DNA of 64,000 nucleotides from NCBI GenBank assembly GCA_965227065.1, contig CBDDFN010000009.1, positions 151,337 to 215,336 of the forward strand. The letters are read 5' to 3'. Below are positions 3,479 through 63,208 of the stretch, one piece after another. The stretch comes from Alphaproteobacteria bacterium (GTDB lineage Bacteria; Pseudomonadota; Alphaproteobacteria; SPJN01). Within the stretch, counting starts at the first letter, position 1, and each line of letters begins with the position of its first letter. The translations under genes were made by a program, and so were the position numbers. The notes under the pieces were generated by a model, which saw only the letters and a program-made list of their open reading frames with translations, was not told where the DNA came from and searched no databases.

Positions 3479-3649
3479 CGCCGCATATCCTTCCGGCGTA
3501 TGAAGGTCAAGAGCGTCGCGGAATTGCGGATTTGCAGTTTTGCGACACAGTGTCCCGCGATCTGGCCTGCGCTCTTGCCGCATCTGGACTTTCTTGTGTC
3601 CTAATGCCACAAACTGCGCCGGTTTGAGGAAAAAGCTGAGGGGAGCCGC

Positions 3650-4189: not shown

Positions 4190-4201
4190 GGAGCAGAACC
4201 A

Positions 4202-10499: not shown

Positions 10500-11597
10500 C
10501 TAATTGGCAAAGCGGAAATGCATGATGTCGCCGTCTTGCACGACATAGTCCTTGCCTTCAAGCCTGAGTTTGCCGGCATCTTTCGCCGCCTGCTCCCCGC
10601 CCAAGCCGACAAAATCGTCATAAGCGGTTGTTTCAGCGCGGATAAAGCCTTTTTCAAAGTCGGTATGGATAACCCCGGCGGCCTGCGGCGCCTTGGTGCC
10701 GGTGGGGATCGTCCAGGCGCGCGCCTCTTTGGGGCCTGCGGTGAAATAGGTGATCAGGTCCAACAGCCCGTATCCGGCGCGGATGACGCGGGTGAGGCCG
10801 GTTTCTTCAAGCCCGATGCCTTCGAGGAACTCGTCCTGTTCTTCGGGCGGCAGGCTGGCAATTTCGGCCTCAATCGCGGCTGAGATCACCACGGCAACCG
10901 CACCTTGTCTGGCGGCCATCTCTTCGACCTGTTTGGAAAATTCATTGCCCTGTGCGGCGGAGCCTTCTTCGACATTGCAGATATAAAGCACCGGCTTGCC
11001 CGACAAGAGCTGCAGGTTTTTAAACAAATCCCGCTCGTCATCATCAAGCTCAACTGTGCGGGCGGCCTTGCCGTCTTCGAGCACCGCCTTGATCTTCTGC
11101 ATCAGCGGCACGACCGCCTTGGCATCCTTGTCGCCGGTCTTGGCCTGCTTTTCGAGTTTGACGAGGCGCTTGTCGAGGCTTTCAAGGTCCGACAGCATCA
11201 GTTCGGTTTCAACGGTTTCAGCATCTTCGACCGGGTTCACCCGGCCATCGACATGGGTGATGTCGTCATCTTCAAAACAGCGCAGCACATGGCAGATCGC
11301 GTCGGTTTCGCGAATATTGGCCAGGAACTGGTTGCCCAGCCCTTCGCCTTTGGACGCACCGCGCACCAGGCCCGCAATATCCACAAAGGTCAGCTGGGTC
11401 GGCACAATCTTGGCTGACGTTGCGATTGCGGCGATCTGGTCCAGCCGCTCATCGGGAACCGCAACCTGACCGACATTGGGCTCGATCGTGCAGAAGGGGA
11501 AATTGGCGGCTTGGGCCGCCGCCGTCTGCGTCAGCGCGTTAAACAAAGTCGATTTGCCGACATTGGGCAGCCCGACAATCCCGCAACGAAATCCCAT
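10500..11597 (-). CDS. ychF: redox-regulated ribosome-binding ATPase YchF
   Basis: Walker A GIVGLPNVGKSTLFNALT and a C-terminal TGS domain. 365 aa. Confidence 0.95.
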   Translation of the reverse strand: MGFRCGIVGLPNVGKSTLFNALTQTAAAQAANFPFCTIEPNVGQVAVPDERLDQIAAIATSAKIVPTQLTFVDIAGLVRGASKGEGLGNQFLANIRETDAICHVLRCFEDDDITHVDGRVNPVEDAETVETELMLSDLESLDKRLVKLEKQAKTGDKDAKAVVPLMQKIKAVLEDGKAARTVELDDDERDLFKNLQLLSGKPVLYICNVEEGSAAQGNEFSKQVEEMAARQGAVAVVISAAIEAEIASLPPEEQDEFLEGIGLEETGLTRVIRAGYGLLDLITYFTAGPKEARAWTIPTGTKAPQAAGVIHTDFEKGFIRAETTAYDDFVGLGGEQAAKDAGKLRLEGKDYVVQDGDIMHFRFAN

Positions 11598-11601
11598 GTC
11601 T

Positions 11602-12204
11602 TCAGTCCTTTGATGTGGCTTTGGGCTGGGGCAGATGATCCTGCACCGCCAAACTCACCTGGTTCATAAATCCGCTGTGGTCACCGCCGGCCAAAGCTTC
11701 AGCCGAGCGCGCCATCTGATCAAGCATGGGCTCAAGCCAGACCTGATCGGCCTTGGCGAAGTCACCCAGCACATAAGGGCTCACCCGGTCCTTGTGGCCG
11801 GGATGGCCAATTCCGATGCGCACGCGGACAAAATCGGGGCCGATATGCTTGGCGATGGAGCGGATGCCGTTATGGCCCGCCGCACCGCCGCCGGTCTTCA
11901 CCCGCACCTTGCCGGGCGCGAGATCAAGCTCGTCATAAAAGACAATGACGTCTTGCGGCGTGATCTTGAAAAAGCGCATGGCTTCGCCGACGGCGCGCCC
12001 GCTTTCATTCATATAAGTGGCGGGTTTGAGGGCGAGCACCTTGTCGCCATCGAGCACGCCGTCGCGGACGGCGGCCTGGAACTTGGCGCGCTCAGGGCCG
12101 AAACGGTTGTGTTCGGCAATCGCATCGACGGCCATAAAGCCAACATTGTGCCTGTGGCCGGAATACCGCGCACCGGGATTGCCGAGACCGACAAACAGTT
12201 GCAT
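11602..12204 (-). CDS. pth: peptidyl-tRNA hydrolase
   Basis: MQLFVGLGNPGARYSGHRHNVGF signature. The ychF-pth-rplY synteny is canonical. Confidence 0.95.
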   Translation of the reverse strand: MQLFVGLGNPGARYSGHRHNVGFMAVDAIAEHNRFGPERAKFQAAVRDGVLDGDKVLALKPATYMNESGRAVGEAMRFFKITPQDVIVFYDELDLAPGKVRVKTGGGAAGHNGIRSIAKHIGPDFVRVRIGIGHPGHKDRVSPYVLGDFAKADQVWLEPMLDQMARSAEALAGGDHSGFMNQVSLAVQDHLPQPKATSKD

Positions 12205-12243
12205 CGCTCAGCGTCCCCCGTGCGCGTTTCGTGGTCCAAGGGC

Positions 12244-12900
12244 TTAGTCTTCGCCCTTATCCTCTTCTTCGCCTTCCTCGGCCTCAGCCTCGGCTTCCGC
12301 GTCTTCTTCCTCTTCGGTCTTGGCAACCGTCGGTGCGGCAATCGTGGCGATGGTGAAGTCGCGGTCGGTAATGGTCGGCGTCACGCCTTCGGGCAGCTCG
12401 ACTTCCGAAATGTGGATCGAGTCGCCGATCTCATATTTCGACACGTCGATGACGATCTCATCGGGGATCGCAGTGGCGGGCGCGTTGATTTCGACTTCGT
12501 GGCGCACAACGTTGAGAACGCCGCCTTGCTTGAGGCCCGGGCTCTTGTCTTCATTGATGAAGTGCACGGTAACCTCAACAGCGACGGTCGCGCCTTTAGC
12601 GATGCGCAGAAAGTCGACATGTTCGGGGCGGTCGGTGACCGGGTGGAACTGAACCTCACGGGGCAGGGCCTGTTCGGTAACCGAGCCTGCTTCAACCTGA
12701 TAGACGGTCGAGAAGAAGGTGCCGGTGTGCAGTTCTTTGACCAGATCCTTTTCCAGGATCGTGACGGTCACGGGGTCTTTCTTACCACCATAGATCACAG
12801 CGGGAATGCGTCCTTCCCGGCGTGCGGCCCGCGCGGCCCCCTTACCGGCGCGATCCCTGATCTCGGCGGCGAGCGTTGATTGTTCGCTCATCGCTGTCAT
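12244..12900 (-). CDS. rplY: 50S ribosomal protein L25 / general stress protein Ctc
   Basis: N-terminal L25 domain ([16 protein letters not shown]) with a C-terminal acidic tail. Confidence 0.9.
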
Positions 12901-34827: not shown

Positions 34828-36108
<1,281 letters not shown>

Positions 36109-36115
36109 ACGTCAT

Positions 36116-36271
36116 CGTCATGCCGGGCGACCCAAATAAAGTTTGGGGAGGCCCGGAATCTGTCGGCACCGAATTGCGTTCTGCACCGTATGGACGGGTT
36201 TGATTGCATCACGACCAGATTCCGGTCTTCCGCCCCCTGAAAGGTTCAGGGTGCGCAAACCGGAATGACGC
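36116..36271 (+). repeat. approximately 150 nt repeat element with terminal inverted repeats, copy A
   Basis: Begins CGTCATGCCGGG and ends CCGGAATGACG. Internal inverted pair CCGGAATCTG ... CAGATTCCGG. Shares long identical blocks with the reverse complement of 62020-62163. Confidence 0.55.
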
Positions 36272-36360
36272 CCCAAAGGACAATAGCGCGCCTCACAAGC
36301 GCTTGATTGGCACGTCATCGCGATCTCGGCTTAAGGTATGGGCCGAGATGGAGGTCTGTC

Positions 36361-37320
36361 ATGCTGATCAAGAACAAGCGCGCGTGGGAAATTCCCGAAT
36401 GCGAAGCCACCCCGGAACATATTTACTGGTCGCGCCGCGACTGGATTAAGGCTGCCGGGGTTGCGGTTGCAGGTTCCATCCTGCCGCCGGGCATTGCGCT
36501 GGCGAGCGAAGACACCAGCGCCGGGCTTTATCCCGCCCCGCGCAATGAGGCCTACACGCTGGACCGTGACCTCACCCGCGAAGAAATCGCGACCAGCTAC
36601 AATAATTTCTACGAATTCGGCTCGCACAAGCAGATTGCAGAACGTGCGCAAGACCTCAAAACCCGGCCCTGGACGGTCAAGATTGACGGCATGGTCGACA
36701 ATGCGATGGAACTCGACATTGATGATCTGTTGAAAAAGGTCACGCTGGAAGAACGGCTCTACCGCTTCCGCTGTGTCGAAGCCTGGGCAATGGCGGTGCC
36801 GTGGACGGGCTTTCCGATGGCTGATCTCGTCAAAATGGCGGGTCCGCAATCGGGCGCAAAATATGTCCGCATGGAAACGTTCCTGGACCCCAAAGTGGCG
36901 CGTGGTCAGAAACAGCGTTGGTACCCCTGGCCCTATGTGGAGGCGCTGACGCTGGAAGAGGCAACCAATGAGATGGCTTTCATGGTGACGGGGCTCTACG
37001 GCAAGCCCTTGCCCAAGCAGAACGGCGCCCCCTTGCGGCTGGCTGTGCCGTGGAAGTTTGGCTTCAAAAATATCAAATCGATCGTTCGGTTCACCTTTAC
37101 CGATGAGAAGCCAACAAGTTTCTGGGAAGACATTCAGCCCAGCGAATATGGCTTCTGGGCGAATGTGAACCCCGAAGTCCCCCATCCTCGCTGGAGCCAG
37201 GCGTCAGAGCAACTGATCGGCACGATCAAGCGGCGCAAGACCTTGTTGTTCAACGGCTATGAAGAGCAGGTCGCCCATCTCTACAAGGATATGAAGCAAG
37301 GCGATTATCTCTACCGCTAG
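36361..37320 (+). CDS. msrP: protein-methionine-sulfoxide reductase catalytic subunit MsrP (YedY family)
   Basis: Tat signal (SRRDWIKAAGVAVAGSILPPG) and Mo-cofactor oxidoreductase domain. No msrQ-like gene follows. Confidence 0.85.
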   Translation: MLIKNKRAWEIPECEATPEHIYWSRRDWIKAAGVAVAGSILPPGIALASEDTSAGLYPAPRNEAYTLDRDLTREEIATSYNNFYEFGSHKQIAERAQDLKTRPWTVKIDGMVDNAMELDIDDLLKKVTLEERLYRFRCVEAWAMAVPWTGFPMADLVKMAGPQSGAKYVRMETFLDPKVARGQKQRWYPWPYVEALTLEEATNEMAFMVTGLYGKPLPKQNGAPLRLAVPWKFGFKNIKSIVRFTFTDEKPTSFWEDIQPSEYGFWANVNPEVPHPRWSQASEQLIGTIKRRKTLLFNGYEEQVAHLYKDMKQGDYLYR

Positions 37321-37377: not shown

Positions 37378-38553
37378 ATGTGGAAATGGATCGCCATTGG
37401 TCTGGGCGTGCTGATCGTTGTGGTCGGCATTGGTCTGGTTGTGCTGCAAGAAGTGGGCATGGCCATGCTTTATAAGCCTGATACCGAATTTGCCGAGCAT
37501 GAGCCCTGGCCTGCGCCGGACTATTCAGACCCCAAAAGCTGGTCGGCGCTGCCTGGCCGCGATGACGCTGCCGATGCGCTGCCCGAAGGGGTGGATGCGG
37601 TTCCCGAAGCCCAGCGGCTGGCAGATGTGTTTTATGTACATCCCACGGTGAATTTCAGCACCGACCGCTGGAACGGCAAGGTGGGTGACCCCGAGCTTGA
37701 TATGCTGGTGGATCAGTTGCCGGTCAAATCGCAAGCCAGCGCGTTCAATGGTTGTTGCCGGGTGTCGGCGCCGCGCTACCGTCAGGCAACCTTTTACACA
37801 TTTATGGAAGACAAGCCCTCCAACATCGCCGCGATTGATCTGGCCTATCAGGATGTGGCGCGCGCCTTTGATTATTTTGTCGGCACGCTGGAGCCGGGCC
37901 GCCCGATCATTCTGGCGAGCCACAGCCAGGGCAGCCATCATCTGGCGCGTCTGTTGGCCGAACGTGTGTCGGGAACCGCGATCGCGGAACGTGTTGTGGC
38001 CGTCTATATGATCGGTATCGGCTTTCCAGTTGAGGCCGTTGCAAAGAATGCCCCTGATTTCCCGGTCTGCCAAAGCGCTGATGACACAGGCTGCATCATC
38101 CATTGGGACACCTATTGGGAGAACGGCAATCCAGACATCAATTATCGCGGATTGCCCAAATGGATCGATGGAAAATATCAGCACCCCGAAGATGCCACCG
38201 GCGTGTGTGTCAATCCGCTGACCTGGACCAGCGAGAAGGGCGAGAAGTCCGATCATGCCGGGGCCGGCCGGGTTGATCCGGGCGCGTTTGCCGATGTGTT
38301 CACGGGCGGATCGGCCCCGGAGGCGGGGTCTGAAAGCCATTTGGGGCCCATCATTCCCAATCTGACCGAGGCATGGTGTGCGCGCGGCTTTTTGTGGGTG
38401 CCCGACAATGATCATGAGGCGTTTCAGACGCTGCGTATCCCCGGCGGCAGTTTGCACCTGCTTGATTACGCCTTGTTCTGGAAAGACATTCACGACAATG
38501 CCAGCGTAAGGGTGAATGCCTTCATCGCTGCGCAGGCGAACGCATTGAGGTAA
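37378..38553 (+). CDS. DUF3089-like alpha/beta hydrolase, membrane-anchored (paralog 1)
   Basis: N-terminal TM anchor, VFYVHPT motif, CC pair in NGCCRVSAPRYRQ, and GxSxG nucleophile elbow ILASHSQGS. Six conserved Cys shared with the two downstream paralogs. Confidence 0.7.
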   Translation: MWKWIAIGLGVLIVVVGIGLVVLQEVGMAMLYKPDTEFAEHEPWPAPDYSDPKSWSALPGRDDAADALPEGVDAVPEAQRLADVFYVHPTVNFSTDRWNGKVGDPELDMLVDQLPVKSQASAFNGCCRVSAPRYRQATFYTFMEDKPSNIAAIDLAYQDVARAFDYFVGTLEPGRPIILASHSQGSHHLARLLAERVSGTAIAERVVAVYMIGIGFPVEAVAKNAPDFPVCQSADDTGCIIHWDTYWENGNPDINYRGLPKWIDGKYQHPEDATGVCVNPLTWTSEKGEKSDHAGAGRVDPGAFADVFTGGSAPEAGSESHLGPIIPNLTEAWCARGFLWVPDNDHEAFQTLRIPGGSLHLLDYALFWKDIHDNASVRVNAFIAAQANALR

Positions 38554-38560
38554 GTGTGTC

Positions 38561-39715
38561 ATGGCCCGATGGCTGGTTGCGGGGTTCATTCTCCTGCTTG
38601 TTCTGTTTGGTGTTGCCATCGCCTATCAGGATGTCCTGATTTATTATTTCGGCACGAAACCGCCGCAAGCGTTTAACGACACCGACCAGCCCTTGCCGCC
38701 CGATTATCGGCAGACGGGAAGCTGGGCGGCGCGGCCGGGCATGGACGGCTTGAACTACGCTGAAATGCTGCCGGCGGGGGTTGATCACGTTCCAATGCGG
38801 GACCGGGCGGCCGATGTGTTTTATGTGCATGGCACTTCGGTTTTCCTGCCTGTGTGGAACGCCACGCTGGATCACACCGACACCAATTGGCGAACCGACA
38901 GTTTCGGTCTGGTTCAGCAAGCCAACGTGTTCAACGCCTGTTGCCGGGTGTTTGCGCCGCGCTACCGGCAGTCGGGCCTGTTCAGCTTTGTTGACGGCGG
39001 TGAAGATGGCCGCCGGGCCGTCTCTCTCGCCTATGACGATGTGCGCGACGCTTTCCTGCATTACCTGTCGGTGGTCGATGAGGACCGGCCATTTATTTTG
39101 GCGGGACACAGCCAGGGCGCGGCTCATATTCTGCGCCTGCTTTCGGAGCTGGTGGAAGGCACGCCGCTCGAAAAACGGCTGGTGGCCGTTTATGCCATTG
39201 GCTATTGGCTGCCCGACGATTTTTATCCCCGCCTGTCCAGGACACCGGTGTGTGAAAGCCCTGCCGATACGGGCTGTGTGGTGAGCTGGGATACGTTCAT
39301 GGAAGGGGGCGAGCGAAGCATCGCCACACCGCGAATGGGGGTGTTCGCAGACGGGGCATACGGGCCGAAGGCTGAAGGCAGGGGGCTGTGCATCAATCCT
39401 GTCAGCTGGATGCGCAATGGCGAGACATCAAAGGAGGAGCATCAGGGCGGCTTGCCAATGGGCTTTATGACCGCAGATGCCAATCCTGATCCGGCCCCGT
39501 ACCGGGCGTTTGAGCTGGTGCCGGTTTTGCCTGCCCATACTTATGCAAGGTGCGCCGACGACGGGGGGCTGATTGTCTCACCCGATATTGACCCGCATTT
39601 CCGGGTTGCCGAGATGCCCGGCAAGTCGCTGCACCCGATGGATTTCAGCCTGTTCTGGGCCGATATCCGGGCCAATGCGGTGCTGCGCAGCCGCACCTTT
39701 GTGCAAGGAGAGTAG
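38561..39715 (+). CDS. DUF3089-like alpha/beta hydrolase, membrane-anchored (paralog 2)
   Basis: Same architecture (VFYVHGT, NACCRVFAPRYRQ, ILAGHSQGA, CESPADTGC). About 40% identity to its neighbours. 7 nt gap from paralog 1. Confidence 0.7.
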   Translation: MARWLVAGFILLLVLFGVAIAYQDVLIYYFGTKPPQAFNDTDQPLPPDYRQTGSWAARPGMDGLNYAEMLPAGVDHVPMRDRAADVFYVHGTSVFLPVWNATLDHTDTNWRTDSFGLVQQANVFNACCRVFAPRYRQSGLFSFVDGGEDGRRAVSLAYDDVRDAFLHYLSVVDEDRPFILAGHSQGAAHILRLLSELVEGTPLEKRLVAVYAIGYWLPDDFYPRLSRTPVCESPADTGCVVSWDTFMEGGERSIATPRMGVFADGAYGPKAEGRGLCINPVSWMRNGETSKEEHQGGLPMGFMTADANPDPAPYRAFELVPVLPAHTYARCADDGGLIVSPDIDPHFRVAEMPGKSLHPMDFSLFWADIRANAVLRSRTFVQGE

Positions 39716-39720
39716 CCTTC

Positions 39721-40875
39721 ATGTTTCGCGTGTCCGCCCGTACTTTGCTGCGTTTGTTTGGCCTTGCTGTTGTGCTGGGTCTTGTCGCGCTTTATGCGGC
39801 CTGGACGTTCCGCTTTGAGCTGCTTGAGCAACGTGTGGCGGTGACCAAGCCATTTCGTGCCGAAGAAGCACCTGCCGCGCCTGATTATGATGATCCACGC
39901 TATTGGTCGGCCTGGCCGGGCAAGCCTGGTTTTGCAGCGCTTGTGCCGCGTGACTTGACCCCGCTGCCTGAAGCGGCGCGCAAGGCTGATGTGTTTTATG
40001 TTCATGCCACAACGCTGGACCGGGCGAGCGCATGGAATGCAAGCCTTGATGATGCAGTAATCAATGAGGTGACCGATCAGCTTTACACCGCGCGCCATGC
40101 CAGCGTGTTCAATTCCTGCTGCCGTATCTTTGTGCCGCGCTGGCGTCAGGCAACCTTGTTTGCCTCGCGCCGTCATACCGCCGACACGGCGGCGGCGATG
40201 GCGCTGGCTTATCGGGATGTCGAAGCGGCCTTTGAGCGGTTCTTGGAAGAGATTGGCGACCGGCCGTTCATTCTGGCAAGCCACAGCCAGGGCAGCCTTC
40301 ACATGGAACGGCTGCTTGCCACCAAGGTTGCGGGTAGCCCGCTCGAACAAAGGCTGATCGTGGCTTACATGATCGGCTATTGGACGCCCGAACGCATCGC
40401 CGCAAAAGCGTTCCCCAGCCTGCCGGTCTGTGAAAGCGCGGCGCAAACCATGTGCGTGGTCAGTTGGGACAGCTATGGCGAGGGCCGAACGCCTTTTGAG
40501 AAGGTTGATGTGTTCGGCCATTGGGATGGCGAACGCTACGCGCCCGGAGGCGAGGGCAAATCCATTTGCGTCAATCCGCTGAGTTGGGAAAAAGATGGCG
40601 GCCCGGCGGATGCCGCCTCCAACAAGGGTGCGCTTGCGGTGGATTATGATCTTGCCCGTACCATTGGGCCGGGCGTGACGTCACTTCCCCCGCTGCAAAA
40701 GGGTCTGGTTTCAGCGCAATGCCGCGCGGGCCGCCTTTACGTGCCGGTACAGGATGGCCTGTTCGCCTACAAGGTGACGATGCCGAGCTATCACCGCTTC
40801 GACTGGGGCTTTTTCTATGGTGACCTGTGGGCCAATGCAGCACTGCGCACCGATGCGTGGCTGGCAGCCCGCTAG
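39721..40875 (+). CDS. DUF3089-like alpha/beta hydrolase, membrane-anchored (paralog 3)
   Basis: Same architecture (VFYVHAT, NSCCRIFVPRWRQ, ILASHSQGS, CESAAQTMC). 5 nt gap from paralog 2. The stop overlaps the convergent TBDR stop. Confidence 0.7.
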   Translation: MFRVSARTLLRLFGLAVVLGLVALYAAWTFRFELLEQRVAVTKPFRAEEAPAAPDYDDPRYWSAWPGKPGFAALVPRDLTPLPEAARKADVFYVHATTLDRASAWNASLDDAVINEVTDQLYTARHASVFNSCCRIFVPRWRQATLFASRRHTADTAAAMALAYRDVEAAFERFLEEIGDRPFILASHSQGSLHMERLLATKVAGSPLEQRLIVAYMIGYWTPERIAAKAFPSLPVCESAAQTMCVVSWDSYGEGRTPFEKVDVFGHWDGERYAPGGEGKSICVNPLSWEKDGGPADAASNKGALAVDYDLARTIGPGVTSLPPLQKGLVSAQCRAGRLYVPVQDGLFAYKVTMPSYHRFDWGFFYGDLWANAALRTDAWLAAR

Positions 40876-43292
40876 AAGGTCACATTCGCCTGAACGATAA
40901 GTGTGCGGGGATCGCCGGCACGCGCCCAGTGGCTGCCATTGAACAATGGCACATCAAAGCCGCGGATTTTGATGGTTTTGTCGAAAGCGTTTTTGAGAAA
41001 GACGCTGGCGCTCCACCAGCCGTCCAGAGATTTGAGAGAGGCCCGGAAGTTGACCCGGTAATAGGCATCCTGGCTGTCAAACTCGTCGAGATCGGCTTGC
41101 AGATATTGCTTGCCCTGGAAATACAGATCGCCGCCGACAATTAACTCAATGGGCCAATCAAACAGCAGGGTGGTGTAGTCGACAATGACGGTCAGCTGAT
41201 AGCGCGGTGCGCCCAGCCGCTCGCCGGTCAGATCACAAAAACCGCTTTGCCCGGCCTGACAGGGGCCGTTTTCATATTCGGTATAGTAAGCATCAAGGAA
41301 GGAGGCCGAGCCGCCCAAGAAGAAGCCCCACGGCAGGACGGCGCCGCCTTCGATCTCAACCCCCTGGCTCACGCTGGCGGCGGCATTTTCAACAATCGGG
41401 GCAAGCCCGTTGAAAATGAAAGTTTGCAGATCGGTGAATTCGGTACGGAACAGCCCGACATTGACCCGGCCCACGCCGTCTAGAAAATCAGCCTTGAACC
41501 CCAGTTCATATGTGTCCGATTGCTCGGGCTCAAACTCGATCTCTTCGGCCGTGAGCGCCTGCGTGTTAAAGCCGCCCGATTTGAAACCGCGCGCATAGGT
41601 GGCGTAGACATTGATATTGTCCGTGGCGCGCCAGATGACCGACAGCTTGGGTGAAAATTCAGACTCGCGCCGGAACAGGTCGTCTTCATTGATATTTTCA
41701 GCCCCCAGAATGGGCTGGATCAGCAAGCCTTCGCTAGGAATAGTGCCCAGTTCAAAGTTTTGCGCAAACTGGCTGCCTTCCTTGCGCTCCACCGAAATGC
41801 GCATTCCGGCGACGACCGAAATCCATGGCCGGATATGCCAGGTGAACTGGCCGAAGGCAGCGACGCTTTGCGTGTCCTGGACGAGCGTGCCGTCGCGCTT
41901 CTCAACCGGCGCGCCGATATTGGGCGTATCAAGAATGCCGAGCAGAAGCGGACCAACAAGCGGGATGGGGTTGAGTATGTCATCCAGAACAAGGCCCAAA
42001 GTGCCGCCCAGATTGTCGATCTTGCCGACACTGATATTGGTGTCGGCATCAAGGTGCGACCGGAACAGATAGACCCCGCCGATAAATTCGCCATCGCCCC
42101 AGCTTCCGAAATTGGTATCTCCCGCGACGCGCAGCTCCAGCGAGCTTTGGTCATAGAGCTGGAGCTCCTCAAGAAAGATCACCGGAACGGGAGAGAAATC
42201 GCCATCGACGAAATTGTCCCGGTCGAACTGTGAATGGTGGCCGATCAAATCAAAGCTGAGGTCAAACAGCTCAAACTTTGCCTTGGCAGTGAAGTCTTTG
42301 TTGATTTGAAGGCTTTTGGACTGTTGATCCTGGGAGCCTTGCCGGTCAAGCCGCGTTTCAAACTCAGGATCAAAAATCTCGGACAAGACACCCAGGCCGC
42401 TTCCCACCCGATCAATCTCAAAGCCCGCACCTTGCGGTGTGTCGTAACGGTTATAAACAGCCGTCAGCACCAGTTCAGCGGTGTCTGAAAATGTGAACTT
42501 GACCTTGCCGCGCACCAGATCCTGGGTGAACCGGCCATCATTCATGTCCAGAAACGAATTGTAGAAAAAACCTTCGCGTTCAGAATGGGTGGCAGCGATC
42601 CGCACTGAAACGAAATCCTCGATGATCGGGATATTGCCGACAATGGTGCCGGCAAGTTTTTGATAGGTGCCGATCTCGCCAGTCAGGCTGGCTTCATACT
42701 CTTCATGAGGGTCTTCGGTGCGAACGGTCAGCGCACCGGCAATCGTGTTCTTGCCAAACAAAGTGCCTTGAGGGCCGCGCAGAACCTCGATCTGTTTCAC
42801 GTCGAGAAAGGCCATAGAGAGATAGTGCAGCCGACCATAATAGACATCATCAATAATCAGTCCGACGGACTGTTCAAAGCCTTCCAGCTGGCCAGAGCCG
42901 AGCCCGCGAATGGCGACCTCGTTAAACACGCCGCCTGAGACCACGGTGAGATTGGGGGTGTATTTCGACAGATCGGAAAAGTCTTGAATGTTCTGGTCTT
43001 TGAGCGCTTCACCCGAAACGGCGGACACCGAAATCGGCACCTCGCGAATGTCTTGCTCTTTCTTCTGGGCGGTGACGATGATTTCGTCGAGGCCCCGGCG
43101 CCTGGCCCGGTCATCGCCTTCAGCAAGGGTTTGGACGGACTTCGATTCGGGGTCGAGTGTGCTGCCAAAAGTTGAGCCTTGCGCGTCCTGAGCCCTGACA
43201 GGCAAGGCTGTGGCGGTGACGGTGAGGGCCGCTGCGGTCAGCACCAACGCTGCGCGGCGGTGAGAGGACAATGGAGGAAGTCTGAGACGCAT
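40872..43292 (-). CDS. TonB-dependent receptor (paralog 1)
   Basis: Signal peptide, plug-domain motif DEIIVTAQKKEQDIREVPISVSAVSGE, and a beta-barrel ending in aromatic F (ANVTF). Confidence 0.9.
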   Translation of the reverse strand: MRLRLPPLSSHRRAALVLTAAALTVTATALPVRAQDAQGSTFGSTLDPESKSVQTLAEGDDRARRRGLDEIIVTAQKKEQDIREVPISVSAVSGEALKDQNIQDFSDLSKYTPNLTVVSGGVFNEVAIRGLGSGQLEGFEQSVGLIIDDVYYGRLHYLSMAFLDVKQIEVLRGPQGTLFGKNTIAGALTVRTEDPHEEYEASLTGEIGTYQKLAGTIVGNIPIIEDFVSVRIAATHSEREGFFYNSFLDMNDGRFTQDLVRGKVKFTFSDTAELVLTAVYNRYDTPQGAGFEIDRVGSGLGVLSEIFDPEFETRLDRQGSQDQQSKSLQINKDFTAKAKFELFDLSFDLIGHHSQFDRDNFVDGDFSPVPVIFLEELQLYDQSSLELRVAGDTNFGSWGDGEFIGGVYLFRSHLDADTNISVGKIDNLGGTLGLVLDDILNPIPLVGPLLLGILDTPNIGAPVEKRDGTLVQDTQSVAAFGQFTWHIRPWISVVAGMRISVERKEGSQFAQNFELGTIPSEGLLIQPILGAENINEDDLFRRESEFSPKLSVIWRATDNINVYATYARGFKSGGFNTQALTAEEIEFEPEQSDTYELGFKADFLDGVGRVNVGLFRTEFTDLQTFIFNGLAPIVENAAASVSQGVEIEGGAVLPWGFFLGGSASFLDAYYTEYENGPCQAGQSGFCDLTGERLGAPRYQLTVIVDYTTLLFDWPIELIVGGDLYFQGKQYLQADLDEFDSQDAYYRVNFRASLKSLDGWWSASVFLKNAFDKTIKIRGFDVPLFNGSHWARAGDPRTLIVQANVTF

Positions 43293-43327
43293 ACCGAATT
43301 TCCTCGCTCAACGAAGGGCTCACCCTG

Positions 43328-45760
43328 CTAGAAGCTGGCTGTGAGTTGAATGGAGTATGTTCGCGGATCATTGGTCCGCGCCCAATGCGACCCAGTGAAC
43401 AGGGCAATGTCAAATGAGCGCGTGATTGTGGTCTTGTCGGTGAGGTTGCGCACGAACAGATTGGCACTCCACCGCCCGTCAATATCCTTCAAAGCCGCCC
43501 GCAGATTGAAAATCATATAGGCGTCCTGCTTGTCGGCGTCGTCGAGATCTGATTGCAGGAACTGCGTGCTCTGATAGTAAAGGTCACCGCCCACCACCAG
43601 CTCGACCGGCCAGTTAAACAGCTGGGTCGTGTAATCGGTGATCACCGTCAGCTGATAGCGCGGTGCGCCCAGCCGTTCATCGGACAAATCGCAAAACCCG
43701 TTCTGGCCCGCTTTGCAGGGGCCGTTCACATATTCGGTGTAAAACGCATCGAGAACCGAAAAGGACCCGCCCAGGAAAAATCCAAGCGGCAAGACCGCAC
43801 CGCCTTCAAGTTCGATCCCCTGGCTGACGCTGGCCGCGGCATTGTCGACGACGGGAGCAAGGCCGTTAAAAATGAACGTCTGGAGATTTTTGAATTCGGT
43901 GCGGAACAGACCCAGATTGACCCGGCCGACGCCATCGAGAAACTCGGCCTTGAGGCCAAGCTCATAGGTGTCGGATTCCTCGGGCTCAAACTCAATTTCC
44001 CCGGGATTAAGGGCCTGGGTGTTAAAGCCGCCGGCTTTGAAGCCGCGAGCATAGGTGGCGTAAATATTGATGTCGTCGGTCGCGCGCCAGATGACGGAAA
44101 CTTTTGGCGACAACTCGCTTTCTTCGCGCTTGAGGCCCTGCACATTGTAGTTGCCCGCACTCAGCACCGGAAACAACACAAGCCCGGGGCTGGGGATCTG
44201 GCCCAGTTCAAAATTCTGTGCTGTGAGTGAACCTTCCTTGCGCTCAAATGAGATGCGCAAGCCCGCAACCAGCGAAATCCAGGGCCGGATATGCCAGGTA
44301 AATTGCCCGAACGCGGCAATGCTTTGCGTGTCTTGCAGCAATTGGGTGTCACGGGTTTCAAGCGTTGCACCAAGGCCCGGCGTATTGAGCGAGGCCTGCA
44401 GCAGGGCGCCGACAACCGGTGTATTGACCAGAAGGTTGGGCAGCAAGTCGGTGAGCGTCACGCCCAGATTGTCGATTTTGGCGAGCTGGATGTGCTGAAA
44501 CGCGTCGAGGTGAGAATCAAAAAGATAAAGCCCGCCGATAAACTCGCCGTCGCCCCAATCGCCGAAACTGGTGTCACCGGCAACGCGCAGCTCAATCGTG
44601 GTTTGGTCATATTCATCAAATTGATCAAGCTGGATGATCGGAACGGGCGAGAAATCCGCATCAAGAATATTGTCGCGCTCATAAATCGAATGATTGGCAA
44701 CCAGTGTGAAATCGAGCCCGAACAGTTCGGTGCGCAGGCGGGCAGAGAAATCGGTGTTGACCTGTTCGGTAAAGCCGCGCTGATCGAACGAGCCTTGCCG
44801 GTCGACCTGAAACTCGACATCGGGGTCAAACAGTTCCGACAGCACGCCCAGGCCGGTCCCGACCGCGCTGAGCTCAATGCCCGCGCCTTGCGGAACCACA
44901 TGTTTGTTGTGGGTGGCGGACACAACAAGATCGGTCGTGTCGGTCATCTCAAATGCGATTTTGCCGCGCACCAAATCCTGTTTGACCTGGCCGTCATCCT
45001 CGTCGAGATAGGTGTTGTAGACGAAGCCCGCGCGTTCGGTGTGCATCCCCGCAAAGCGGACAGCAATGCGGTCATCAATAATCGGAATGTTGACCGCGCC
45101 CTGGATGGCGCGCTTTTCATGGCTGCCCAACTCGCCGGTTGCGGTGACTTCCCAATCATAGACCGGGTCCTTGGTGCGCACCGTCAGCGCACCGGCAATA
45201 GTGTTCTTGCCAAACAGCGTGCCTTGCGGGCCGCGCAGAACCTCGACTTGCTGCACATCAAGAAAGGCCATGGTGAGGTAATGCACCCGGCCATAATAAA
45301 CATCGTCAATGATCAACCCGACCGATTGTTCAAACCCTTCCATCAGCCCCGAACCCAGGCCGCGAATGGCGACTTCATTGAACGGGCCCGATGACAAAAC
45401 GCTCAGATTGGGTGTGTATTTCGACAGGTCCGAAAAGTCCTGAATGTTCTGGTCTTTGAGCGCTTCGCCCGATATGGCCGAAACCGAGATCGGCACTTCG
45501 CGGATGTCCTGCTCTTTCTTCTGGGCGGTGACGATGATTTCATCAAGTCCGCGGCGCTTGGCCCGGCCGGCTTCCTGGGCCAGGGCCTGATTGGCAGGGG
45601 TGTCTTCTTCAATGGCAGAGGCGCCGAACATGGAGGTTGAGGGAGGCGTTGTCTCGTCCCCAGCCCCCTGCGCCGCAGCAGAGCCGTGAGACAGCGATGC
45701 AGCCACAATGAAGATGCCGGCTGATTGGCGCAGACGATCTCTTGATGGGCAATAGCGCAT
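43328..45760 (-). CDS. TonB-dependent receptor (paralog 2)
   Basis: Plug motif identical to paralog 1, with a C-terminal LTASF. 35 nt gap from paralog 1. Confidence 0.9.
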   Translation of the reverse strand: MRYCPSRDRLRQSAGIFIVAASLSHGSAAAQGAGDETTPPSTSMFGASAIEEDTPANQALAQEAGRAKRRGLDEIIVTAQKKEQDIREVPISVSAISGEALKDQNIQDFSDLSKYTPNLSVLSSGPFNEVAIRGLGSGLMEGFEQSVGLIIDDVYYGRVHYLTMAFLDVQQVEVLRGPQGTLFGKNTIAGALTVRTKDPVYDWEVTATGELGSHEKRAIQGAVNIPIIDDRIAVRFAGMHTERAGFVYNTYLDEDDGQVKQDLVRGKIAFEMTDTTDLVVSATHNKHVVPQGAGIELSAVGTGLGVLSELFDPDVEFQVDRQGSFDQRGFTEQVNTDFSARLRTELFGLDFTLVANHSIYERDNILDADFSPVPIIQLDQFDEYDQTTIELRVAGDTSFGDWGDGEFIGGLYLFDSHLDAFQHIQLAKIDNLGVTLTDLLPNLLVNTPVVGALLQASLNTPGLGATLETRDTQLLQDTQSIAAFGQFTWHIRPWISLVAGLRISFERKEGSLTAQNFELGQIPSPGLVLFPVLSAGNYNVQGLKREESELSPKVSVIWRATDDINIYATYARGFKAGGFNTQALNPGEIEFEPEESDTYELGLKAEFLDGVGRVNLGLFRTEFKNLQTFIFNGLAPVVDNAAASVSQGIELEGGAVLPLGFFLGGSFSVLDAFYTEYVNGPCKAGQNGFCDLSDERLGAPRYQLTVITDYTTQLFNWPVELVVGGDLYYQSTQFLQSDLDDADKQDAYMIFNLRAALKDIDGRWSANLFVRNLTDKTTITRSFDIALFTGSHWARTNDPRTYSIQLTASF

Positions 45761-45810
45761 TTAAACCACTCCGTTATTGCCGGGTTGATCCGTATGCCGG
45801 TCTGGAAAGG

Positions 45811-48303
45811 CTAGAATGTGGCCCGAAGCTGAACGGCGAAGGTTCTGGGATCGTTGGTTGTCACCCAGTGAGACCCGGTGAAGAAGGCGACGTCGGAGGA
45901 CCGTGTCTTGATGGTGCGGTCCATGACGTTGCGGACAAACAGCGAGACGTTCCACCAGCCATCAATACTGCGCAGTGACGCGCGCAGATTGACAAGATAA
46001 TAAGCATCTTGCGCATCGAACGGATCGCGGTCGGATTCAAAAATCTGCCGGGTCTGGAAATAAAGGTCTCCGCCAATCACCATTTCGATCGGCCAGTTAA
46101 ACAGGCCCGTCGTGTAGTCGGTGATGAAGGTGAACTGATTGCGCGGGTTGCCGCGCTTCTTGCCGGTCAGGTCGCAAAACCCGTCCTGTCCTGCAATACA
46201 CGGACCGTTTTCATAGCTCGTATAGAAGGCATCAAGGAAGGAGTAATTGCCGCCAATGAAGAAGCCCCAGGGCAGCACCGCGCCGCCTTCGATTTCAAGT
46301 CCCTGGCTGACAGATTCAGCAGCGTTGCGCACAATCGGTGCCAGGCCATTAAACACGAAGGTCTGAAGGTTCTTGAACTTGGTACGGAACAGGCCGAAAT
46401 TCACCCGGCCGACACCGTCAAGAAACTCGGCCTTCAAACCCAGCTCAATGGTTTTGGATTCTTCGGGCTCAAAGGCAATATCGGTTAGCGCAGCAGATGT
46501 GGATTGGGTGTTGTATCCACCGCCTTTAAAGCCGATCGCGTAGGTTGCATAGACATTGATCTCGTCAGTGGCGCGCCAGATGACCGAGAATTTGGGCGAG
46601 AAATCACTTTCCCGGCGGAACAGCTGATTGTCGCCCGTATAGTCGAAATTGTCGGCGTTCAGAACCGGCGCAAGGATGAGGCCAGGGCTTGGCACTGCGC
46701 CGAATTCATAGTTCTGGGCGAACAGATCACCGGTTTTGGTTTCAACCGCATAGCGCATGCCGACCAGCAGCGAAATCCACGGCTTGATATGCCAGGTGAC
46801 CTGGCCAAAGGCCGCGACGCTTTTGGTTTCTTGAAGCAGGCTTGTTTCGCGGGTCTCGAACACAAATCCGGCATTGGGCGTGTTGAGCAGCGTATTGAAG
46901 ATCAAGCCCAGAAGCGGATTTTGGCCGGTAATATTGTCGAGCGGTGTGCCGATCAGGCGGCCCAGATTGTCGACCTGGAATATTTGAATGTTCTGGAAGG
47001 CGTCCAGTTCGCTGCGGAACAGATAGGCGCCGCCGACATATTCAATCTCGCCCCAATCGCCAAGGAATGCATCGCCATTGACCCGGATTTCCAGTGTGGT
47101 CTGCTCATATTCATCAAGCTGGTCGAGCTGGACGAGGGGCAGTGGCGAGAAGTCGGCATCAATGCGGTTGTCGCGATCATAAATCGAATGCGCGGCAATG
47201 ACGGCAAAGGTCTGGTTGAACAACTCAAAATTGGCGCGGCCCGAAAAATCGGTCGTCGTCAGGTCGGTCATCGCCATTTCGTTCATCGAACCCTGGCGAT
47301 TGATGTCGGCTTCAAACTCATCGTCATAAAGCGGAGCGGCGACCTGCATGCCACCATCGGCCCGGCTGAGTTCGACACCGACCCCGTTGGGAACATCATA
47401 CTGGTTGTGAACCACCGTCAAAATCACGTCGGCGGTATCGGTAATGTCGAATTTCAGCTTGGCGCGGATCAGCTTTTGTTCGTTGGCACCGTCTTCGGCG
47501 TCAAAGAATGTGTTGGTGGCAAATCCGCCGCGTTCCGCCCAGCGGCCTGACACGCGCAGGGCCAGCCGGTCGTCAATGATGGGGACATTGATGGCGGCAT
47601 TGACGGAGCGGCGCTCAAAATCGCCAATCTCGCCGGTGACATCGACTTCCCATTCATAGCTGGGATTGGTGGTGTTGATGATCAGCGCCCCGGCAATCGT
47701 GTTCTTGCCAAACAGCGTGCCTTGCGGTCCGCGCAGAATTTCAACCTGTTTGACGTCCAAAAAGGCCTGGGTGAGGTAATGGACGCGGCCAGCATAAACA
47801 TCGTCGATGATCAGACCAACAGCCTGTTCAAAGCCTTCCATCTGGCCTGATCCCAGGCCGCGGATCGACACGCCATTGAACACGCCTGAGGCGTTGACCG
47901 ACAGGTTGGGGGTGTATTTGGACAGTTCGGTGAAATCCTGGATGTTCTGATCTTTCAGCGACTCGCCGGAAATGGCGGAGACGGAGATCGGGACTTCACG
48001 AATGTCCTGCTCGGTTTTCTGGGCGGTGACGATGATCTCATCAAGGCCACGCCGCTGCGCGCGCGGGGCGCCCTTGCTCATGGAGGCGGCAACATCGCCT
48101 TCAACATCGGCTGACCCGAATGTTGATTTTTGAGCCTCTTTGGTTTCACCAGTCTCGGCTGCGGGCTGGGAGGGGTCGATGGCGTCTTGCGCGGCGCTGG
48201 GCAGGGCGGTGCCTGATATCAGTAGTGACAGAGCCAGTCCGGCAACAGCGCTTTTTCGGATGCTGCCATTTTGCAGTGCAGCATTCGCTTCGTGATGCAT
48301 CAT
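45811..48303 (-). CDS. TonB-dependent receptor (paralog 3)
   Basis: Same plug motif (DEIIVTAQKTEQDIREVPISVSAISGE), with a C-terminal LRATF. 50 nt gap to paralog 2. An AT-rich promoter-like region lies upstream (48304-48510). Confidence 0.9.
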   Translation of the reverse strand: MMHHEANAALQNGSIRKSAVAGLALSLLISGTALPSAAQDAIDPSQPAAETGETKEAQKSTFGSADVEGDVAASMSKGAPRAQRRGLDEIIVTAQKTEQDIREVPISVSAISGESLKDQNIQDFTELSKYTPNLSVNASGVFNGVSIRGLGSGQMEGFEQAVGLIIDDVYAGRVHYLTQAFLDVKQVEILRGPQGTLFGKNTIAGALIINTTNPSYEWEVDVTGEIGDFERRSVNAAINVPIIDDRLALRVSGRWAERGGFATNTFFDAEDGANEQKLIRAKLKFDITDTADVILTVVHNQYDVPNGVGVELSRADGGMQVAAPLYDDEFEADINRQGSMNEMAMTDLTTTDFSGRANFELFNQTFAVIAAHSIYDRDNRIDADFSPLPLVQLDQLDEYEQTTLEIRVNGDAFLGDWGEIEYVGGAYLFRSELDAFQNIQIFQVDNLGRLIGTPLDNITGQNPLLGLIFNTLLNTPNAGFVFETRETSLLQETKSVAAFGQVTWHIKPWISLLVGMRYAVETKTGDLFAQNYEFGAVPSPGLILAPVLNADNFDYTGDNQLFRRESDFSPKFSVIWRATDEINVYATYAIGFKGGGYNTQSTSAALTDIAFEPEESKTIELGLKAEFLDGVGRVNFGLFRTKFKNLQTFVFNGLAPIVRNAAESVSQGLEIEGGAVLPWGFFIGGNYSFLDAFYTSYENGPCIAGQDGFCDLTGKKRGNPRNQFTFITDYTTGLFNWPIEMVIGGDLYFQTRQIFESDRDPFDAQDAYYLVNLRASLRSIDGWWNVSLFVRNVMDRTIKTRSSDVAFFTGSHWVTTNDPRTFAVQLRATF

Positions 48304-61485: not shown

Positions 61486-61956
61486 ATGCAGCAGGTAGAA
61501 ATCCGGCCCGCCGGACCGGCCGACCAGTCGCAATTTCTGAGCATCGTCAAGCTCATCCGGGACGAGATGGGCCATGGCGAGGCCAAGCCCGGCGCGCTTG
61601 ATGAAATGGCGCATATGCTGTGCGCACCGCATTATGACGGCATCAAGCATCATTGGTTGCTGATCGCGGTCGCGGATGGCGAGATTGTCGGCTATTGCAC
61701 CATGCACCGGGTGCCGATGCCGATTGTCGGCGGCTCGGAAGCCTATATCTCGGACCTGTTTGTGCGGGCCGATATGCGCGGCCATGATCTGGGACACCGC
61801 TTCATCGACAAGCTCGACGAGATCGCCCAGGCCGAAGGGTTTGTCCGGATGCATGTCATCAATCGCAAGGACCGGGAAAGCCACAAGCGCGGCTTTTACC
61901 CCAAGCTTGGCTTCCGCGAACGCGAAGAAACCGCCAGCTTCGTGCTGGAATTCTAG
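61486..61956 (+). CDS. GNAT family N-acetyltransferase
   Basis: Acetyl-CoA binding motif A (DLFVRADMRGHDLGHRFI). 156 aa. Confidence 0.7.
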   Translation: MQQVEIRPAGPADQSQFLSIVKLIRDEMGHGEAKPGALDEMAHMLCAPHYDGIKHHWLLIAVADGEIVGYCTMHRVPMPIVGGSEAYISDLFVRADMRGHDLGHRFIDKLDEIAQAEGFVRMHVINRKDRESHKRGFYPKLGFREREETASFVLEF

Positions 61957-62019
61957 GCGGCGGCCGCGCGCCGACCATCTTGCCTCCGGCAGGGCGGGGA
62001 AGAGAAACACCCCAACGCA

Positions 62020-62163
62020 GCGTCATTCCGGTTTTCGCCCGCAAACCTGTTTGGGGGCGGAAGACCGGAATCTGGAGGTCCTGCGACTCCACGGATCGGT
62101 GCGGTGCAGAACGAAACGCCGTGCCGACAGATTCGGGGATGCGCAAACGCACCCGGAATGACG
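62020..62163 (-). repeat. approximately 150 nt repeat element with terminal inverted repeats, copy B (inverted relative to copy A)
   Basis: GCGTCATTCCGG ... CCGGAATGACG. Internal CCGGAATCTG...CAGATTCGG. Its reverse complement aligns block-for-block with 36116-36271. It ends about 70 nt upstream of the tRNA. Confidence 0.55.
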
Positions 62164-62231
62164 GTGGAATGATCCAAACCACCCCTTGCCGATTCAGCGC
62201 GAGAGTGAGAAGACTTGCCTTCCCAAAGCGC

Positions 62232-62305
62232 GGGGCCGTAGCTCAACTGGTTAGAGCCATCCGCTCATAACGGATTGGTTGCAGGTTCAAGTCCTGCCGG
62301 CCCTA
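62232..62305 (+). tRNA. tRNA-Met (anticodon CAU), elongator type, or possibly tRNA-Ile2 (lysidine)
   Basis: Manual cloverleaf: acceptor GGGGCCG/CGGCCCT, D-arm GCTC-AACTGGTTA-GAGC, anticodon arm ATCCG-CTCATAA-CGGAT, T-arm GCAGG-TTCAAGT-CCTGC, and discriminator A. CCA is not encoded. Confidence 0.8.
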
Positions 62306-63208
62306 CGCCTTCAAATGCTTCACCAGAAAATCCCGCGCCGCGGCGGAGCCCAACTCGAACTGGTTGGCATAGACTTCCATATGCCCGCCTTGCACCAACA
62401 ACAGCTCTTTGGGTTCAAGCGCGTGTTCGTAAGCCTCCAGCGCAATATCGGTGGGCGTGACAATGTCATGGCTGACCAAAATCATCAGCAGCGGCACCGG
62501 GCTGATCTGGTGGATATGCTGGGCGGGTTCATACTCGGCCATCATTTCCGAGGATTTGAGCGTCACCTGGTTGAGCCATTGCTCGGTCCCCAGCAGGCCC
62601 GATTCGCGAATGAAATCCCATTCCTCGGGTGAGGGCAGGGCGCATAGCGCACCGCGTTCGGCAAAGACATCGATCACGGCGGCTTCGCCACCCGCAAAGC
62701 GGGTTTCGCGGTCGCGGTCATACATATCCCGCAGCACTTCGATTTCTTCCTCGCGGAACACACGGTGCGTGTTTTTGTGGCCCGAAATGAACGGCACCTG
62801 GCTCACCACCGCCTTGATCCGTTTGTCGAGCCCGGCCACGGCGAGCACATGGCCGCCCGAATAGCTTGTCCCCCAAATGCCGATCCGCTCGCGGTCAATG
62901 TTGGGATGGGTGCGCGCAAAGGTGATCGCGTCGCGATAGCCCTGAACCTGCAACCAGGGATCGGATTCAAGGCGCGGGCTGCCGTCCGAGGCGCCGAAAT
63001 TGCGATGGTCATAAACCACGCAGGCCAGTCCCGCCGCGCAGAAAATCTCGGCATATTGATCGAGAAAGACCTCTTTCACGGCTGAAAAGCCGTGCGCCAT
63101 GACCACGGCGGGATGGGGGCCTTCACCCTCGGGCAGATAGAGCCAGCCGCGCAGCGTGACCCCGTCGGCGGTTTGAAATTCAATATCGGATCGCATGATC
63201 GCCCCCAT
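62303..63208 (-). CDS. alpha/beta hydrolase family protein
   Basis: Nucleophile elbow GIWGTSYSGG and HGFSAVKE region. 301 aa. The stop overlaps the tRNA 3' end by 3 nt. Confidence 0.75.
   Translation of the reverse strand: MGAIMRSDIEFQTADGVTLRGWLYLPEGEGPHPAVVMAHGFSAVKEVFLDQYAEIFCAAGLACVVYDHRNFGASDGSPRLESDPWLQVQGYRDAITFARTHPNIDRERIGIWGTSYSGGHVLAVAGLDKRIKAVVSQVPFISGHKNTHRVFREEEIEVLRDMYDRDRETRFAGGEAAVIDVFAERGALCALPSPEEWDFIRESGLLGTEQWLNQVTLKSSEMMAEYEPAQHIHQISPVPLLMILVSHDIVTPTDIALEAYEHALEPKELLLVQGGHMEVYANQFELGSAAARDFLVKHLKA

Follow-up and report, generated by a model that had tools for sequence, protein, structure and literature searches.

Repetitive extragenic palindromic (REP) sequences of the CGTC-tagged class carry a CGTC tag, 8-9 bp stems starting with AT and short tails, and are predominant in Alphaproteobacteria (Di Nocera et al. 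2013, PMC3733652). They occur mostly as head-to-head dimers with spacers of 20-100 bp, often conserved or with complementary ends, and lie close to the 3' ends of upstream open reading frames (ORFs). Their canonical loops are 4-5 nt long and their tail consensus is CCA; the loops of Bradyrhizobium CGTC-1 are longer. The class is without a dedicated transposase, and no transposase gene flanked by CGTC repeats has been reported (PMC3733652). In Bradyrhizobium japonicum, a three-palindrome element has been described in which Br-REP1, CCGGAATCTCGAGATTCCGG, is the central stem-loop and Br-REP2, CGAGATTCCGGG...CCCCGGAATGA, the flanking palindrome (Hahn et al. 2016, PMC5082802). Herein, we analyzed a 64,000-nt stretch of an alphaproteobacterial contig (the window), which holds two copies of one composite palindromic element in opposite orientation: copy A (36116-36271, + strand, 156 nt) and copy B (62020-62163, - strand, 144 nt). 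Both copies are best described as dimers of CGTC REPs, probably of the Br-REP1/2 type. We put at about 80% the probability that each locus is a head-to-head dimer of CGTC-tagged REPs, a REPIN-like composite of a class widespread in Alphaproteobacteria. Since the element belongs to a described class, the finding is genuine but ordinary.

Anatomy of the two copies

A sequence-only reading of the window had reported two look-alike copies in opposite orientation at these positions. The alignment confirmed this, as it spans the whole length of A and B with 81% column identity, flanks counted. The identical blocks common to both copies, among them GAATCTGTCGGCAC, CGTTCTGCACCG, CCAGATTCCGGTCTTCCGCCCCC and AAACCGGAATGACGC, reach 23 nt (0.01 matches expected by chance). 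A 21-mer from the longest block, CAGATTCCGGTCTTCCGCCCC, was found at exactly two sites of the window, 36216-36236 (+) and 62054-62074 (-); 100 shuffles gave an expectation of 0.01 matches, and none of them reached two. In a repeat search, no inverted repeats of the window were longer than the two formed by the A/B pair. A third copy was absent within the 64 kb by mismatch-tolerant patterns, BLAST and a covariance model run with filters off. The finer description needed some correction. Inverted termini are present as claimed, but copy A starts with CGTCATGCCGGG and not with CGTCATTCCGGG. The block common to both copies is GAATCTGTCGGCAC, and CCGAATCTGTCGGCAC is confined to B. Because A reads CCGGAATCTG at that place, the inner inverted pair CCGGAATCTG/CAGATTCCGG is perfect in A only and has one mismatch in B.

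To define a unit, we used GTC followed by an 8-nt stem starting with AT, with the complement of the stem no more than 45 nt on. The scan of the window with this rule gave four units arranged as two inverted pairs, compared with 1.3 hits of any kind in mononucleotide shuffles. The parts of the two copies are as follows.

36116..36162, + strand: REP unit A1 (rule-based finder), with CGTC, stem ATGCCGGG, stem CCCGGAAT (one G/A mismatch) and tail CTG
Within 36116..36162, + strand: insert of A1, 24 nt, self-complementary (CCCAAA..TTTGGG)
36163..36215, + strand: spacer of copy A, 53 nt
36216..36270, - strand: REP unit A2, with CGTC, stem ATTCCGGT, a 32-nt self-complementary insert, stem ACCGGAAT (perfect) and CTG
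62021..62074, + strand: REP unit B2, with CGTC, stem ATTCCGGT, a 31-nt self-complementary insert, stem ACCGGAAT (perfect) and CTG
62075..62127, - strand: spacer of copy B, 53 nt
62128..62163, - strand: REP unit B1, with CGTC, stem ATTCCGGG, stem CCCCGAAT (one C/C mismatch) and tail CTG
Within 62128..62163, - strand: insert of B1, 13 nt (TGCG TTTG CGCA)

All four units follow one grammar: CGTC, ATKCCGGN, a self-complementary insert of 13-32 nt, NCCSGAAT and CTG. The CGTC tags face outward in both dimers (head-to-head), and the stems of A2 and B2 are perfect, whereas those of A1 and B1 have one mismatch each. The inserts differ wholly between A and B, yet every insert is a hairpin. The two spacers are identical at 23/28 positions over the first 28 nt (TCGGCAC..CGTTCTGCACCG) and at 11/25 over the last 25 nt. 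The spacer ends together with the tails are complementary (CTG...CAG) and lengthen the inner stem; the two tails of a dimer are therefore able to pair. Furthermore, the core ATTCCGG/CCGGAAT is common to all four stems, so that one strand has two alternative folds. In the first, local hairpins stand in a row; in the second, an outer stem is combined with an inner stem that carries two side hairpins. The two folds differ by 1-5 kcal/mol with RNA or DNA parameters. Folding z-scores ranged from -3.1 to -5.4 against shuffles for all four strands, both strands being about equally stable, and the predicted stem-loop energy as RNA was -60 to -72 kcal/mol. The nested-palindrome architecture proposed earlier holds, but what had been called terminal inverted repeats (TIRs) are the outer arms of separate REP hairpins.

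Several features agree with the CGTC class. All four units have an unpaired CGTC tag, 8-bp stems with A-T and T-A as first pairs, and a 3-nt tail after the stem, which here reads CTG and may pair within the dimer. The dimers are head-to-head with outward tags, and their 53-nt spacers have complementary ends and are partly conserved. The host is alphaproteobacterial, the copies lie just downstream of ORFs between co-directional genes, and there is no evident associated transposase. Within the class, the resemblance by description is above all to family CGTC-1, a candidate assignment beside CGTC-2, -3 and -4. With regard to the Br-REP1/2 element of Bradyrhizobium and Rhodopseudomonas, the window element likewise has three palindromes and a location in 3' untranslated regions (UTRs). 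The arms of its central stem, CCGGAATCT / AGATTCCGG, match Br-REP1 at 9/9 positions in copy A and 8/9 in copy B. As in Br-REP2, the right-hand unit starts ..AGATTCCGG and ends CCGGAATGA. However, the arms are about 2 nt apart in Br-REP1 and 55 nt apart in the window, the interiors of the flanking hairpins are unrelated, and the window host is not a member of the Bradyrhizobiaceae.

REPINs (Bertels & Rainey 2011; cited in PMC3733652, PMC6006769) are also two inverted REP hairpins acting as a unit, and like them the window element persists vertically (site B is common with the relative L036, see below), lacks target-site duplications (TSDs) and keeps its hairpin. REPINs differ in having GTAG tags and a cognate single-copy RAYT flanked by REPs; the window tag is CGTC, and a RAYT for the CGTC-tagged class has not been reported. 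Alphaproteobacteria have few or no Y1 transposase homologues (Quentin et al. 2018). Neisserial dRS3 is listed as CGTC-1 (PMC3733652). By description, it resembles the window element in an ATTCC..GGAAT stem behind the CGTC tag and in mosaic composition, but has the stem ATTCCC/GGGAAT, a host from another phylum subdivision and a clustered organisation. Neisserial intergenic mosaic elements consist of invariant short blocks around variable modules.

Relatives of the units in metagenomes and genome collections

For a covariance model (R1), we took 25 distinct 41-nt units of soil and other metagenomes and included zero window sequence. When applied to the window, R1 recovered exactly the four units, with scores of 27-34 bits and E-values from 2e-12 to 5e-9; its next-best match scored 10 bits. 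The individual scores were 26.9 bits for A1 (E 4.9e-9), 29.7 bits for A2 (E 2.5e-10), 34.3 bits for B2 (E 2.1e-12) and 27.2 bits for B1 (E 3.4e-9). The search pattern had left the inner stem unconstrained; across the 25 units this stem was 99.1% paired, and six of its pairs had two-sided changes (53 cells). The check for covariation that the sequence-only reading had proposed was thus positive within the family: the covariation score of the inner stem was 0.40, against 0.09 in shuffles and at most 0.035 when the partners were slid by 1-3 columns. The covariation was almost wholly Watson-Crick, with G-U in 2/350 cells, as is expected if both DNA strands must pair. Such a near-absence of G-U would be unlike the usual outcome of selection on one RNA strand.

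A pattern made of the termini only, GTCATTCCGG-N95-125-CCGGAATGAC, recovered 16 IMG/VR contigs with the same nested layout, and the interior of these contigs reads GTCATTCCGGG-hairpin-CCCGGAATCC...GGATTCCGGG-hairpin-CCCGGAATGAC. The unit pattern gave at least 123 matches in metagenomes. Among the matches listed, 115 had an 8-bp stem, with inserts of 13-27 nt, and 90 formed dimers. Most of these dimers measure about 100 nt (range 80-229 nt); at 144 and 156 nt, the copies in the window stand toward the long end. The listed dimers prefer Y before CGTC and R after GACG, and the CGTC tags and first stem positions are strictly conserved across phyla. The earlier reading was sound in that the element is a short, dispersed, non-coding repeat of nested palindromes and a member of a family; its presence varies among close relatives.

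The search for the exact subfamily gave a different picture. The 19-mer CAGATTCCGGTCTTCCGCC had 14 hits in 185,579 species-representative genomes, a set outside which the source genome lies, and one match in IMG/VR; all were chance matches with dissimilar flanks. No match of copy A to the PLSDB plasmids was found by blastn, and the terminal 10-mers occurred in the literature only as primer sequences. One match to the unit pattern in IMG/VR (L040) was rejected as chance, as it lies within apparent coding sequence.

Two further hairpin loci were noticed. At positions 3300-4560 of a metagenome contig (L056, Ga0208179_1000002), at least nine CGTC units are clustered around a small ORF in AT-rich DNA, with ATTCCGGT/ACCGGAAT stems identical to that of the perfect units of the window; the unit type therefore spans genomes of very different base composition. 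In a 90% relative (L019), a hairpin CGTC ATTCTGAA ... TTCGGAAT TTG lies at 5858-5895 (- strand) within a short-chain dehydrogenase gene (16.7 bits with R1, E 3e-4). Either a REP within a gene or a chance resemblance could account for this hairpin.

Filled and empty sites in related lineages

The gene annotation of the window agreed with the intergenic positions given earlier, aatA-msrP for copy A and GNAT-tRNA-Met for copy B, and the distance of about 70 nt between copy B and the tRNA was measured as 68 nt. The neighbouring genes are as follows.

34903-36108, + strand: aspartate aminotransferase gene (aatA), upstream neighbour of copy A
36361-37320, + strand: molybdopterin oxidoreductase (MsrP-like) gene, downstream neighbour of copy A
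61486-61956, + strand: GNAT gene, upstream neighbour of copy B
62232-62306, + strand: tRNA-Met (CAT), given for context; copy B ends 68 nt before it

Both copies lie between genes transcribed in the same direction, just 3' of stop codons (7 nt from the upstream stop for A, 64 nt for B) and just 5' of the conserved promoter region belonging to the following gene. Relative to the neighbouring transcription, they are oriented oppositely.

The closest sampled lineage (L018/L036) has 95% protein, 85% nucleotide and 63% third-codon-position identity in AatA, which indicates a different species; the best-named AatA relatives are marine Hyphomicrobiales-like lineages. In L018, site A is empty, with an intact aatA end, TGCGGCAGCCT|CACAAGCGCTTGA, and 54 nt to msrP, and the genes neighbouring the empty site are intact. 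The comparison defines the following features in the window.

36099..36293, + strand: extra DNA at site A relative to L018, 195 nt, located at the bar of TGCGGCAGCCT|CACAAGCGCTTGA
36095-36098 and 36290-36293, + strand: direct repeat GCCT, one copy of which is within the 195 nt
36106..36108, + strand: new TAA stop codon of aatA, supplied by the inserted DNA

The insert consists of the element flanked by non-repeated filler of 17 nt (left) and 18 nt (right). As a consequence of the new stop, the aminotransferase ends ..CGSLKS* in the window and ..CGSLTSA* in L018. The uninterrupted aatA of the outgroup L021 ends ..SLTN*; it keeps ..SLT.., indicating that the empty site is ancestral and that the difference is an insertion and not a loss. 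Once the nearest sampled lineage had split off, copy A entered aatA within its last codons.

At site B, the 90% lineage (L038/L039) is empty; its tRNA-Met and GNAT genes are only about 47 nt apart. The window and L036, the 95% relative, both have about 200 nt of extra DNA there, with homologous outer flanks.

61985..62190, - strand: extra DNA at site B relative to L038/L039, 206 nt
61979-61984 and 62185-62190: direct repeat CTTGCC, which bounds the 206-nt extra DNA

The extra DNA of L036 is a shorter, restructured CGTC element. It holds one unit, CGTC ATGCCGAA CTTGA TTCGGCAT CTT (14.7 bits with R1), a spacer whose ends are complementary, and what remains of the second terminus. The L036 stem ATGCCGAA/TTCGGCAT differs from the window stem ATTCCGGG/CCCCGAAT by compensatory double substitutions. 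Given the shared flanks and the compensated stem, the insertion at site B is old, vertically inherited and kept as a hairpin. It predates the split of the window lineage from L036 and was later remodelled. By these comparisons, copy A is younger than the insertion at site B.

Both neighbourhoods showed other rearrangements. At site A, the L019 genome of the 90% lineage has a different segment of 48 nt (11189-11236) with its own aatA stop (..SLR*) and a small GC-rich hairpin, so that the aatA end seems to be a site of recurrent rearrangement. Directly 3' of the MsrP-like gene, positions 37378-40900 of the window hold a tandem trio of DUF3089 paralogues, which recur about every 1180 nt and are also present in L018 and L019. 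A second set of three tandem paralogues lies at 41000-48300 (period 2456-2498 nt, 64-83% nucleotide identity), and the syntenic genes in the relatives encode TonB-dependent receptors (Plug and beta-barrel domains). Near site B, the 3' end of tRNA-Met (62232-62306) overlaps the stop codon of an alpha/beta-hydrolase gene (62303-63208, - strand). At the same tRNA junction, L036 has about 1 kb of AT-rich DNA (10859-11870) with a 247-aa ORF and a tRNA-like fragment, and L038 has a 524-aa ORF (10895-12574); the junction looks like an integration hot spot. Beyond close relatives, the best homologues of the hydrolase, which is acetyl-xylan-esterase-like, are 74-76% identical and, where named, belong to metagenome-assembled genomes of gammaproteobacterial Nevskiales or Salinisphaeraceae, which suggests that the gene may have been acquired by horizontal transfer.

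Partial repeats of the terminus were seen outside the mismatched unit of each copy. They read GTCAT aaa CGTCAT / CGTCAT at 36100-36120, next to the CGTC terminus of A, and ATCATTCC ac / CGTCATTCC at 62164-62176, next to that of B. These are not a family trait, as they occurred in 6/180 flanks of the 90 metagenomic dimers listed, against a background of 2.4%. Three other candidates were discarded: a small ORF of 41 aa in the element (36143-36268), which is not conserved since copy B differs by indels; an integron attC site, for which the core motifs are absent; and a Xer/dif site, rejected on sequence grounds.

Proposed mechanism and alternative explanations

By analogy, the hairpins would be functional units on single-stranded DNA. 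As in the REPIN/RAYT system, the REP pair would be copied together by a putative trans-acting enzyme and inserted without TSD, landing mainly just after stop codons, where harm would be small. The inserted hairpins would then be transcribed along with the upstream gene, and the stable stem-loops could block 3' exonucleases or reduce read-through into the next promoter. The basis of this last analogy is the effect of REPs at 3' ends in E. coli, summarised in PMC5082802. We consider this specific account of mobilisation and RNA ends possible, though short of an even chance. As for its insertion step, the 90 metagenomic dimers listed had flanking direct repeats of 0, 1 and 2 nt in 70, 13 and 7 cases, compared with 71, 12.6 and 5.1 expected. 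The family is without TSD.

Several observations weigh against the REP-dimer identity and its proposed movement. The loops of the window units (13, 24, 31 and 32 nt) are self-complementary, against the canonical 4-5 nt, and the tail is CTG instead of CCA. Only two dimers were seen within 64 kb of the source genome; CGTC REPs are described as having tens to hundreds of dispersed copies per genome. In 105 kb from relatives, R1 found two weak candidates only, in L036 and L019, and the 19-mer had no true match in the species-representative genomes, which leaves the exact subfamily a putative multi-copy family. No transposase is linked to the element, and none has been reported for CGTC REPs in the literature; among the annotated genes around either copy in the relatives, none was seen. 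A terminator-like T-run is absent after the hairpins of copy A. Finally, the palindrome accounts for all but 35-56 nt of the extra DNA at each site (repeat copy excluded), the rest being unrelated filler, and the bounding direct repeats are unequal (GCCT, 4 nt; CTTGCC, 6 nt). Precise hairpin-guided cut-and-paste does not predict such filler and unequal repeats, which leave room for microhomology-mediated template switching.

In the latter case, spread would be passive: replication would stall at the palindromes, and a template switch at microhomologies of 4-7 nt would copy the dimer with some donor flank into new sites. The excess of extra DNA at both sites with unrelated filler on each side, the unequal short repeats and the lack of a reported transposase for the class are in keeping with this. 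However, it is drawn from two events only, one of them old and remodelled, a 4-nt repeat easily arises by chance, and the strict cross-phylum conservation of the CGTC tags and first stem positions is left unexplained. We consider passive spread unlikely.

The GANTC sites of the elements raise another possibility, which is compatible with their identity as REP dimers. The window has 54 GANTC sites compared with 234 expected from its base composition, about 4 times fewer. The 300 nt of the two elements hold five of the 54, a density roughly 20-fold that of the background.

36156..36160: GAATC, a GANTC (CcrM-type) site at the stem/tail junction of copy A
36218-36222: GATTC, a GANTC site in copy A
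62068, 62085 and 62130 (start positions): GANTC sites in copy B

GANTC at the base of the inner stem might be the functional core, with structure or protein binding following post-replication hemimethylation. According to a review (PMC10969869), CIR elements are repeats that lie strictly between genes and are associated with CcrM sites, and by that mention the Caulobacter CIR repeats would resemble the window elements in their GANTC sites. The enrichment stands out against strong avoidance in the window, but it follows automatically from the stem sequence, since GAATC arises wherever a ..GGAAT stem is followed by a tail beginning with C. In addition, a CcrM gene cannot be assumed for the source genome, and among the IMG/VR dimers that share these termini, one half read GGAAC-C there and have no GANTC; the site is therefore a possible add-on and not a family invariant or core function. 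A core role of GANTC seems doubtful to us. We give a similarly low chance to the proposal that the lineage holds still-active CGTC REP dimers, with the strictly conserved, non-palindromic half of the spacer (TCGGCAC-N7-CGTTCTGCACCG) and the GANTC stem bases as the recognition site of the mobilising enzyme or host factor. Its grounds are the gain of copy A after the split from the nearest relative and the remodelling of site B. If it is true, complete genomes of the clade could reveal the mobilising factor and settle how CGTC REPs move without a RAYT, a question dating from 2013.

The label of a classical miniature inverted-repeat transposable element (MITE), which the sequence-only reading had put forward, fared worse. 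A MITE would be a deletion derivative of an insertion sequence (IS), moved in trans by a DDE transposase that binds the 11-bp TIRs CGTCATTCCGG/CCGGAATGACG and leaves a TSD of fixed length. The element does have formal TIRs, a size below 200 bp and a non-coding, intergenic location that is polymorphic among relatives, and short direct repeats bound the extra DNA at both sites. It also shares its size, inverted termini, intergenic position and RNA-hairpin potential with the MITEs Correia, ERIC and RUP (review PMC10969869). In contrast to these, its termini have no flanking TSD and no known parental IS. The direct repeats are of unequal length, 4 vs 6 nt, and lie 17-35 nt outside the inverted termini, and in the 90 dimers listed flanking repeats occur at the chance rate; the proposed check for TSDs was thus negative in the window and in the family. 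Moreover, the terminal motif is reused twice in the interior, where it forms hairpin arms, a hallmark of REP dimers, the TIRs being the outer arms of two self-folding hairpins, and the literature has no transposase gene flanked by CGTC repeats (PMC3733652). A MITE origin is therefore very improbable in our view.

Least probable of all is a structured RNA, either a small RNA (sRNA) gene or a cis-acting 3'-UTR/leader element under RNA-level selection, which the sequence-only reading had offered as its alternative: every strand folds to an energy significantly lower than that of its shuffles, the helices covary strongly in the family and differential RNA sequencing reads of Bradyrhizobium japonicum map to such 3'-UTR repeats (PMC5082802), but no Rfam family covers the window or related dimers, the covariation is nearly free of G-U, copy A is absent from a close lineage with intact neighbouring genes, and the copies face opposite ways with respect to the transcription units around them, so that sense transcripts of A and B would be opposite strands. 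The Rfam search gave no window hit at the gathering threshold (best at E<=10, PK-repBA with 18 bits vs a gathering score of 45) and no match for 11 related loci, and no promoter-like site was seen in or adjoining either copy.

Two sites are far too few to reconstruct the chemistry of insertion. As REP dimers, the two copies make a modest addition to the problem of how CGTC REPs move, in a class that is common in Alphaproteobacteria and for which a mobilising enzyme has not been reported. The contribution consists of two comparisons of filled and empty sites and one orthologous hairpin kept by compensatory changes. For annotators, both intergenic stretches are REP-type repeats and not sRNA genes, riboswitches or IS remnants, and one of the insertions gave an aspartate aminotransferase gene a new stop codon and altered its final residues.

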